64,000 nt of DNA from NCBI GenBank assembly GCA_019058275.1, contig JAHLVW010000066.1:128001-192000 (forward strand). The letters run 5' to 3'. Numbering within the stretch: position 1 is the stretch's first letter; the number at the start of each line of letters is the position of its first letter. The DNA comes from Candidatus Heimdallarchaeota archaeon. GTDB taxonomy: Archaea; Asgardarchaeota; Heimdallarchaeia; JABLTI01. Below the pieces are notes generated by a model that did not search any database, was not told the origin of the DNA, and saw only the letters and a program-made list of their open reading frames with translations. Shown one piece after another: positions 1,328-2,941 of the stretch. The position numbers and the translations under genes were made by a program.

Positions 1328-2941
1328 TTACTCAGTAAATACTTTAGTTATTTTACCGATTCCTTTAGTTCTTCCTTCTCTAAAGATTATTTGCTGACCT
1401 ACTTTTAGAAATTCAGGAGAATATAGAAATCGAAATTTAACTGTTGCGTTATCTCCAGTTCTTATCACTTCTTTATCCATTTCAACTAATTTAGCTGTTT
1501 GTCTTATAGGTCCACAATGAATAACAGCTTGATAATTAACATGGATAGTCGTAGAATGATAAAGGATAATGACTTCTGCTTCAAATTCCTTGATTGCTGT
1601 AGGCTGCAAATCATTATCTAATAGAACCATTCCTTTCCTGATTGAATCTCTTGGAATTCTCCTTAGAGCAAAAGTCGCTGTTTTACCTGCAACTACACGT
1701 CTCACAGGTAATCTTTTACTTTGAATACTTTTCACTTTTACTTCTTTAAACTCACCAAAATCATCTGGACCAAGAAGTAAAATATCATCTATTGTTACAG
1801 CACCGCTAATAAGTGTACCAGCAACTACTGTCCCAACACCCGTAACTGAAAATGTTTCATCTATGTGAAATTCTACTGGTTTATCAAAGAATTCTTCCCA
1901 ATTCCGATAAGCCGGAATTAAATTCAAAAATTTCCTTAATAAATCTAAGTTTTCACCTGTAACATTTGATACTAGAAATATTGGTGCTATTCTTCCAGAA
2001 ACTAGATTCTTAGCACTAACAATAACATCATCATCATTTCGAGCTATGATTGGTATTTTATTTGATCCTGGAATCTTCAATAATTTAGTTAGATTATCAA
2101 TTGTTTGTTTCAAAATGTGTTCAGGACAAATGTCTACTTTAGTAATAACAACAATGATTGGAACTTTTAAAGCTAAAGCAATTCCCAAATGCTCTTTGGT
2201 CATGCCAACAATACCCATATTAGCTCCAACAACAAGAAGAACATAGTCGGGTTTGTGTCCAGTCAAACCAAATAAAGTTGTTTTAAGATATTTTTCATGT
2301 CCACCTAAATCAATAAACGTCAATACTTTCGAGCTTTCTTCGATTATTCTGGTCCATGATTGATTGCCAATTTGATTATAATTAACAATCTCACCCTTGC
2401 TGTTAAATCCAAGTATTTGCTGACTAACACTTGATGTTCTGCCTGTTTCAACCTCATGTTTATGTCTGAAAACATTTACTCGAGCAAGTCCTCTACCATT
2501 ATCTAAATTCCCTCGAGTAAGAACACCAACCAATGTACTTTTTCCACTATCAACATTACCAGCAACAGCTATTCTAATCTCAAGGAAATCTTCCTCAGCT
2601 AATTTTCTTACAAGAACTTCAGCTATTTTCCCTTTTTCACCTTCTCTTTCTCTAAGCACTGTAACACTTGCATTTAGCTCTTTAGCCATTTTTTTGAGTG
2701 TTTTAATAGATGACTTTAATTCACGTTCAGTTAGTCCTTTGGGATAGCCATTATCTTCAATTCCTATTTCATAAATAGCTTCTCCCAAGCCTTCTTGCAG
2801 TCGGAATTTCATTTGAGTTACAAGATGTACAAATCTAGTTGCAGTCGGATCTATCAGTTTTAATTTGTACTCTATATTTCCTTCTTCGGATTCTTGATCC
2901 ATTTTGACTGCTTTATTATTCTTTTTTGAAGTCATACTCAA
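1328..2941 (-). CDS. GTPBP1/GTPBP2-family translational GTPase
   Basis: [38 protein letters not shown]; EF-Tu-like domains II/III; N-terminal [10 protein letters not shown] domain. Confidence 0.93.
   Translation of the reverse strand: [537 protein letters not shown]

Follow-up and report, generated by a model that had tools for sequence, protein, structure and literature searches.

The 64,000-nucleotide stretch of DNA analyzed here (hereafter the window) lies on contig 61 of an Asgard metagenome-assembled genome (MAG; 4.1 Mb, 93% complete) and, close to its beginning, it carries on the reverse strand a gene for a translational GTPase of the GTPBP1/GTPBP2 family (coding sequence 1328..2935; 535 aa from the ATG at 2935, stop codon 1328-1330). 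The encoded protein is a complete member of this family, and no known prokaryotic protein is closer to the eukaryotic GTPBPs as a whole than this one and its orthologues in the same archaeal order. The open reading frame (ORF) spans 1328-2941 and yields 537 residues from a TTG at 2941 without internal stops; the ATG at 2935, two codons downstream, is most likely the true start, because translation from it begins MTSKK..., in agreement with the 535-aa database gene call and with the beginnings of the orthologues. A TATA-like element, TTATAATAAA (2963..2972, reverse strand), spotted by eye about 30 nt upstream of this ATG, is a possible archaeal promoter of the gene and would give a very short leader. 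An earlier reading of this DNA (hereafter the original prediction) had proposed a eukaryote-like GTPBP here, and all four peptides it quoted are found in the translation of this frame (residues 20-65, 146-171, 176-188 and 250-261).

Membership in the family is indicated by profile, pairwise and structural comparisons. Pfam detects GTP_EFTU (residues 123-343, E 2.3e-24), GTP_EFTU_D2 (370-440) and GTP_EFTU_D3 (448-534) along the window protein, and no NCBIfam family, aEF1A, SelB and aIF2-gamma included, reaches its cut-off (SelB scores 134 against a cut-off of 242, and EF-1 alpha 110 against 540). The best phmmer match in the PDB is mammalian GTPBP1 (E 3e-191, 640 bits, 56% identity), with residues 21-535 aligning continuously to chain positions 93-608 in what looks like an ungapped stretch, and the second-best match, archaeal EF1A, reaches only 96 bits. 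Similarly, an AlphaFold model built from a 35-homologue alignment (predicted local distance difference test 88.6; predicted template-modeling score 0.85) superposes on GTPBP1 in the ribosome complex 9ypo (9ypo_jj) with template-modeling (TM) scores of 0.90/0.93 and a root-mean-square deviation of 2.2 A, in agreement with the family originally predicted.

The four-domain layout of these GTPases, a GTPBP N-domain followed by a G domain and beta-barrels 2 and 3, is present in full (all features on the reverse strand; residue ranges in the 537-aa numbering). The N-terminal domain (2588..2881, residues ~21-118) begins GNIEYKLKL, aligns to GTPBP1 chain positions 93-190 and is modeled as two helices packed on a beta-sheet. 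In the adjoining GTPase domain (1907..2587, residues ~119-345; Pfam GTP_EFTU), the G1 motif GNVDSGKST (128-136), the switch-I Thr169 in GRTSS, the G3 motif DLGGH (211-215) with the catalytic His215 and the G4 motif TKVD (267-270) are intact and invariant across the 35-sequence alignment, and an H-hairpin/H-helix segment (2342..2416, residues 176-200) stands in place of EF1A helix alpha2. Beta-barrel domain 2 (1607..1879, residues ~355-445; Pfam GTP_EFTU_D2) contains the predicted pocket for the CCA end of aminoacyl-tRNA, and beta-barrel domain 3, delimited by Pfam GTP_EFTU_D3 and the model, occupies 1337..1600 (residues ~448-535).

The host belongs to the class Heimdallarchaeia and to the GTDB order JABLTI01, which corresponds to the Gerdarchaeales (PMC11193907), as expected from the Asgard origin that had been proposed; a JABLTI01-prefixed record carries an 81% identical orthologue. 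A eukaryote-type GTPBP is encoded, in single copy, by all 11 genomes of the host family (f1; 76-97% identity), an identical 535-aa protein is found on a 591-kb contig, and the Gerdarchaeales-type sequences, 44 in number, fall into a tight clade. The neighbors of the gene are a coiled-coil gene and a thioredoxin-reductase-like gene, one on each side, both present in every complete locus of the host family and found beside GTPBP in none of the other Asgard loci compared. The residence of the gene in this syntenic position goes back to the ancestor shared by the two sampled genera of the family. The first of these neighbors, directly upstream of the GTPase (3053-4276, reverse strand), encodes a coiled-coil-like protein of 407 aa, rich in Lys and Glu and without a Pfam match, which holds this position in all family genomes at 45-86% identity and may be co-transcribed or functionally linked with the GTPBP gene.

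A eukaryotic contaminant or a mis-binned contig could also account for a eukaryote-like gene in a MAG, given that the bin is estimated to be 6.8% contaminated and that some near relatives are mislabelled, for example as 'Zixibacteria' and 'Bathyarchaeia'. This source is ruled out by the synteny kept across independent assemblies, with identical neighbors in all complete family loci and the gene in every family genome; moreover, the gene is free of introns, its neighbors are archaeal, its guanine-cytosine content (~32%) is that of the remainder of the window, and the 44 Gerdarchaeales sequences group tightly. We consider the probability of contamination negligible. The mislabelled relatives are 76-79% identical to the window protein (P0011 and P0019, from public records bearing the labels 'candidate division Zixibacteria' and 'Candidatus Bathyarchaeia') and most likely represent mis-binned or mislabelled Asgard contigs.

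Outside its own family, the best matches of the window protein among 5.8 billion proteins are eukaryotic (55-65% identity) and include Dictyostelia, Soliformovum, Ancoracysta, red algae and Naegleria, with amoebozoan GTPBPs reaching 64-65%. Whole-protein identity is ~51-52% both to animal GTPBP1 and to vertebrate GTPBP2; the Gerdarchaeales type as a group is 51.6% identical to the former and 51.5% to the latter, whereas GTPBP1 and GTPBP2 share only 47.6% with each other. For the N-domain taken separately (residues 1-120), the best match outside the family is a metagenomic protein, P0033 (62%; Amoebozoa group in a quick tree), followed by animal GTPBP2 at 55-61%. The GTPBP2 strings cited in the original prediction agree with the sequence of zebrafish GTPBP2b, and its description of these blocks as near-identical to GTPBP2 finds some backing in the N-domain but is too strong in view of the identity over the whole protein.

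Archaeal homologues outside the Gerdarchaeales are more distant. Those of other Asgard families (three of the same class, Wukong-labelled MAGs and others) are 46-55% identical to the window protein, those of the TACK archaea (Thaumarchaeota, Aigarchaeota, Crenarchaeota and Korarchaeota) 46-49%, and a divergent third type, found in Thor-, Jord-, Baldr-, Hermod-, Atabey-, Frey-archaeota- and Asgardarchaeum-labelled MAGs, 29-36%. In a trimmed alignment, mean identity to eukaryotes is 53% for the Gerdarchaeales type against 42-45% for other archaeal (Asgard and TACK) sequences, and at the columns separating eukaryotes from other archaea, of which a strict count left only five usable, the window protein has the eukaryotic state in 5 of 5. 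No informative core indels distinguish the Gerdarchaeales type, eukaryotes and other archaea, and none ties the Gerdarchaeales type to a subset of eukaryotes.

Asgard families differ in their GTPBPs. The ordinary archaeal type is present in the Heimdallarchaeia families f4, f6 and f7, and no GTPBP was detected at E < 1e-60 in two further families of the class (f2, 0 of 29 genomes; f3, 0 of 21) or in the Asgard family f14 (0 of 68). Many of the f2, f3 and f14 genomes are >90% complete, and the best f2 and f3 matches are weak (E 3e-19 or worse, ~25-30% identity); such absence from whole Asgard families suggests repeated loss. The third type (L032-L099) is characterized by an N-domain start GE..N.EFKR and a G1 motif GRVNSGKST, and gives one match per positive genome at E < 1e-60. 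In one Heimdallarchaeia genome, the ordinary-type GTPBP (L022; G160:C620:9930-11507) reads through a single in-frame TAA, which could reflect a pseudogene, a sequencing error or recoding.

Short 'eukaryote-like' matches on long contigs were also considered as additional prokaryotic carriers and set aside, as two of these proteins, checked by contig, lie on plainly eukaryotic contigs and one possibly belongs to a giant virus. A full-length GTPBP with an N-domain is encoded on a compact 9.5-kb metagenomic contig (L132:1958-3568; P0110, also P0113) next to DUF5754, zf-MYND and Skp1-POZ genes; a quick tree puts this protein at the base of the Amoebozoa group, and the contig may derive from a giant virus. 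Viral GTPBP1-like factors described so far are without an N-domain (PMC12775451). Four further metagenomic proteins (P0230, P0326, P0257 and P0267; 529-924 aa, on contigs of 4-11 kb) form a long-branched GTPBP-like clade within the eukaryotic part of the tree, beside the Heterolobosea/diplonemid group.

To place the window protein, a main tree of 79 sequences and 549 columns was inferred with IQ-TREE under LG+C20+F+G4 with posterior mean site frequencies (PMSF), the archaeal sampling comprising Asgard and TACK aGTPBPs; a scan of named genomes with a G1-like sequence pattern gave loci of these two groups only. In this tree the Gerdarchaeales type and all eukaryotic GTPBPs form one clade (support 100/99), within which the Gerdarchaeales clade is sister (80/77) to a 100/99 clade of animal GTPBP1, opisthokont GTPBP2, Amoebozoa and Ancoracysta. 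Constraining eukaryotes to be monophyletic costs 3.1 log-likelihood units (lnL) and is not rejected by the approximately unbiased (AU) test (p 0.30). In AU tests run with PMSF site frequencies, for which the Gerdarchaeales clade was pruned and regrafted on 13 branches, the positions as sister of all eukaryotes (p 0.23, or 0.44 re-optimised), as sister of the clade uniting animals and fungi with Amoebozoa and Ancoracysta (p 0.86) and as sister of the remaining eukaryotes (p 0.375) were retained, and a position with the Heterolobosea/diplonemid group and an unnamed metagenomic clade was marginal (p 0.086). Rejected were placements with GTPBP1 plus GTPBP2 (p 0.009), opisthokont GTPBP2 (0.004), animal GTPBP1 (0.0001), Amoebozoa (0.004; inside Amoebozoa < 1e-5), red algae (0.014) and the Heterolobosea/diplonemid clade (0.033). 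Placement with the Heimdall aGTPBPs was likewise rejected (p 0.0003), and the protein does not group with the TACK/Asgard cluster; the special affinity to eukaryotes that had been predicted was thus recovered, and nesting among generic aGTPBPs, as sampled from Asgard and TACK archaea, was not.

Because the AU tests leave only the three branches that adjoin the deepest node among eukaryotes, the split between the Gerdarchaeales and eukaryotic GTPBPs is placed at or before the first sampled split among crown eukaryotes, and is as old as the last common ancestor of eukaryotes (LECA) or older. It also precedes the opisthokont duplication into GTPBP1 and GTPBP2 (all named proteins in the GTPBP2 clade come from opisthokonts), and the window protein is an orthologue of neither paralogue specifically. 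A quick FastTree analysis under LG (362 sequences) had set the archaeal clade, with weak support, beside Amoebozoa, within a group that also held animals and fungi; this placement is rejected under LG+C20 (p 0.004) and is attributed to a short-branch or model artefact, possibly aided by shared AT-rich composition.

In published species trees, eukaryotes branch with the Hodarchaeales, and the Gerdarchaeales with Kariarchaeaceae and Heimdallarchaeaceae (PMC10307638), or else eukaryotes fall outside the Heimdallarchaeia (PMC12222021). The GTPBP tree conflicts with both, because one order has in common with eukaryotes a long derived branch from which three sister families with the ordinary type are excluded; either a lateral transfer, whichever its direction, or hidden paralogy is therefore required. 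Given that the eukaryotic type is confined to one order, for which the species trees show no pairing with eukaryotes, the link most plausibly reflects one ancient exchange of the gene, or else descent in common, at about the time of LECA.

One form of such an exchange is a transfer from an early eukaryote, stem or very early crown, to the ancestor of the Gerdarchaeales, with replacement of the native aGTPBP. This is favored by the maximum-likelihood (ML) topology, which nests the archaeal clade one node inside eukaryotes, by the very short eukaryote-only stem in the constrained tree (0.058, with 0.49 for the stem shared by Gerdarchaeales and eukaryotes and 0.22 for the archaeal stem), by the confinement of the type to one order without a second GTPBP copy and by the discordance with both species trees; two-way gene exchange between proto-eukaryotes and Heimdallarchaeia has, moreover, been proposed on other markers (PMC12395588). 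The nesting is, however, weakly supported, with the sister position unrejected, and the rejection of all placements inside the sampled crown groups would demand a donor of LECA age or older; the Gerdarchaeales protein also shows neither the eukaryotic tails nor an informative indel shared with any eukaryote subset. In our judgement, import from an early eukaryote falls just short of an even chance.

The sister position, which the AU test does not reject (p 0.23-0.44, delta lnL 3.1-4.0), is what would be expected if a Gerd-like archaeon had been the vertical ancestor or the pre-LECA donor of the gene, the Gerdarchaeales copy then being the true sister of eukaryotic GTPBPs. Consistent with this, the archaeal branch is short and the protein intermediate (48-51% identical to other archaeal GTPBPs, versus 43-45% for eukaryotes), the eukaryote-specific disordered N- and C-terminal tails are absent, and the class of the host is the one most frequently put closest to eukaryotes (PMC10307638), which would be a coincidence under random import. 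Against it stand the ML trees, which put the clade one node inside eukaryotes (80/77 in the main tree; SH-like approximate likelihood ratio test, SH-aLRT, 90 in an outgroup quick tree), and a eukaryote-only stem that is unusually short, relative to the shared stem, for the interval from the first eukaryotic common ancestor to LECA. Restriction to a single order, with the ordinary type in f4, f6 and f7 and none in f2 and f3, and species trees that put the Gerdarchaeales elsewhere than with eukaryotes also count against an ancestral or donor role. The proposition that the ancestor or donor lineage has left, in the Gerdarchaeales gene, a surviving archaeal sister of every eukaryotic GTPBP1 and GTPBP2 is accordingly tentative, and we assign it somewhat less than even probability. 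The original prediction of a direct Asgard precursor is upheld as to eukaryotic affinity and a split of LECA age or older; direct precursorship is not established, import being about as likely.

The kinship could also be an artefact of rate and rooting, the Gerdarchaeales protein being simply the slowest-evolving aGTPBP, with the root on the eukaryotic stem and the resemblance to eukaryotes a retained ancestral similarity. The unrooted sister tree would be identical under such a root, the Gerdarchaeales-type branch is short (0.22-0.27), and the distant outgroup is very long and leaves the root undecided. A quick tree rooted with the Thor/Jord type nevertheless keeps Gerdarchaeales and eukaryotes in one clade (SH-aLRT 94), as does FastTree, a root on the 0.058 eukaryote-only stem was not recovered, and TACK and several Asgard classes would have to share one accelerated stem, itself implying transfers. 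We regard such an artefact as improbable.

The functional residues of the window protein were compared with those of mammalian GTPBP1 by mapping the alignment onto published numbering (PMC12775451; chain number = native + 34). His160 (= His199), Trp196 (= the H-helix Trp237), Arg410 (= Arg449) and Pro412 (= Pro451) are conserved, as are the A76-pocket valines V366/V369/V372 (= V405/V408/V411); the H-hairpin is two residues shorter than that of mammalian GTPBP1, and in the conserved tRNA-pocket residues and the Trp of the H-helix the window protein is closer to GTPBP1 than to GTPBP2. In the mammalian protein the N-domain rests against the G domain and retards release of the factor, and the conserved H-helix Trp packs on the A76-binding Arg (PMC12775451). 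[quoted passage not shown] In its GTP form it would bind aminoacyl-tRNA, possibly also deacylated tRNA, through the domain-2 CCA pocket and Trp196, after which release from the ribosome would be slow, the N-domain blocking domain rotation. Because the N-domain would delay release, the predicted role is that of a slow, accurate auxiliary decoding factor on paused ribosomes rather than a bulk elongation factor. The genome has its own aEF1A elsewhere, apart from the GTPBP gene, and Pelota is also encoded elsewhere in the Gerdarchaeales genome (263 bits). GTPBP2 acts in the resolution of ribosome pauses and binds Pelota in mouse, and links to Pelota or the exosome count among the traits of the family; the rescue function alongside Pelota that was originally proposed would be a candidate role for the window protein.

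Taken together, the family assignment, the eukaryotic affinity, the proposed mechanism and a link dating to around LECA constitute the explanation that best accounts for these observations, and we hold it with good, though not complete, confidence. Several points weigh against it. On the phylogenetic side, the data fit the sister-of-all-eukaryotes position and the position just inside the deepest node equally well, the sole distant outgroup (the Thor/Jord type, ~3 changes per site in total branch length) leaves the archaeal root undecided, the eukaryotic sample is biased to top-scoring copies, with second paralogues of protists probably missing, and euryarchaeal aGTPBPs are absent from the sample. 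On the functional side, the mechanism is borrowed from a mammalian protein of 56% identity and would have to operate on an archaeal ribosome without some of the eukaryotic contacts; the rRNA-contacting His231 at the hairpin tip of GTPBP1 is replaced by Gln in the window protein, and Q407 replaces the tRNA-contacting His that stacks on A76 in GTPBP1.

Elsewhere in the window (4536-6498, forward strand), an ORF for a MoxR-type AAA+ ATPase and the beginning of a VWA-domain ORF have 26 nt in common (5407-5432), with the Pfam domains of both confirmed.

GTPBP1 and GTPBP2 have been associated with neurodegeneration. A compact prokaryotic protein that has no tails, is 51-65% identical to its eukaryotic relatives and stands closer to each animal paralogue than the two stand to each other offers a natural proxy for the state before their duplication and lends itself to structural and biochemical study. 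In the context of eukaryogenesis, it provides a clean single-gene case in which an order of the Heimdallarchaeia has a long derived branch in common with all eukaryotes, and the direction of transfer, once settled, would add a dated point on gene flow between proto-eukaryotes and Heimdallarchaeia and on the contributing Heimdall lineage. If the Gerdarchaeales gene is indeed the archaeal sister of the eukaryotic ones, a paused-ribosome GTPase with its N-domain brake and H-loop was complete in a Gerd-like Heimdallarchaeon before eukaryogenesis, and the eukaryotic stem received it from a Gerd-like lineage and not from a Hodarchaeales-like or deeper one, as favored by present species trees. The family and its archaeal homologues are already known (PMC4342817), so that the finding extends known biology and introduces no new kind of system; a literature search returned no earlier paper on a eukaryote-type GTPBP in Asgard archaea, nor any linking GTPBP1/2 with Asgard, Heimdallarchaeia or LECA.

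Compared with known systems, the window protein shares with archaeal aGTPBPs (Atkinson 2015, PMC4342817) its length, domain order, GN(V/I)EYK start, GNVDxGKST motif and occurrence as a single copy per genome, but it differs from the TACK and other Asgard aGTPBPs in sequence (46-55% identity, with 0.42-0.49 of branch between them) and in keeping the H-helix Trp that those proteins are without. With aEF1A/eEF1A and SelB it has in common an EF1-family G domain, two beta-barrels and the logic of an aminoacyl-tRNA carrier; these factors are only ~20-25% identical, are without the N-domain and have helix alpha2 where the window protein has its H-loop. Among named non-archaeal proteins, its N-domain is closest to that of animal and fungal GTPBP2, with which it also has the motif ILGFNSKGE(I/V)VNY in common, whereas in vertebrate GTPBP2 the H-loop measures 14 versus 16 residues from the ILGF motif to the Trp position and the Trp, kept in the window protein, is absent. 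The closest structural reference is mammalian GTPBP1 (PDB 9ypg/9ypo; Zinoviev 2018, PMC6120710; cryo-electron microscopy, PMC12775451). That protein has 669 aa with disordered tails (aa 1-61 and 575-669) and serves a eukaryotic ribosome, whereas the window protein belongs to an archaeal ribosome system and is tail-less at 535 aa, with only ~20 residues before the N-domain and two after domain 3, the tails being variable among eukaryotes. Both have the four domains, including the N-domain, the H-hairpin/H-helix in place of alpha2, the GNVDxGKST and TKxD motifs and the catalytic His.

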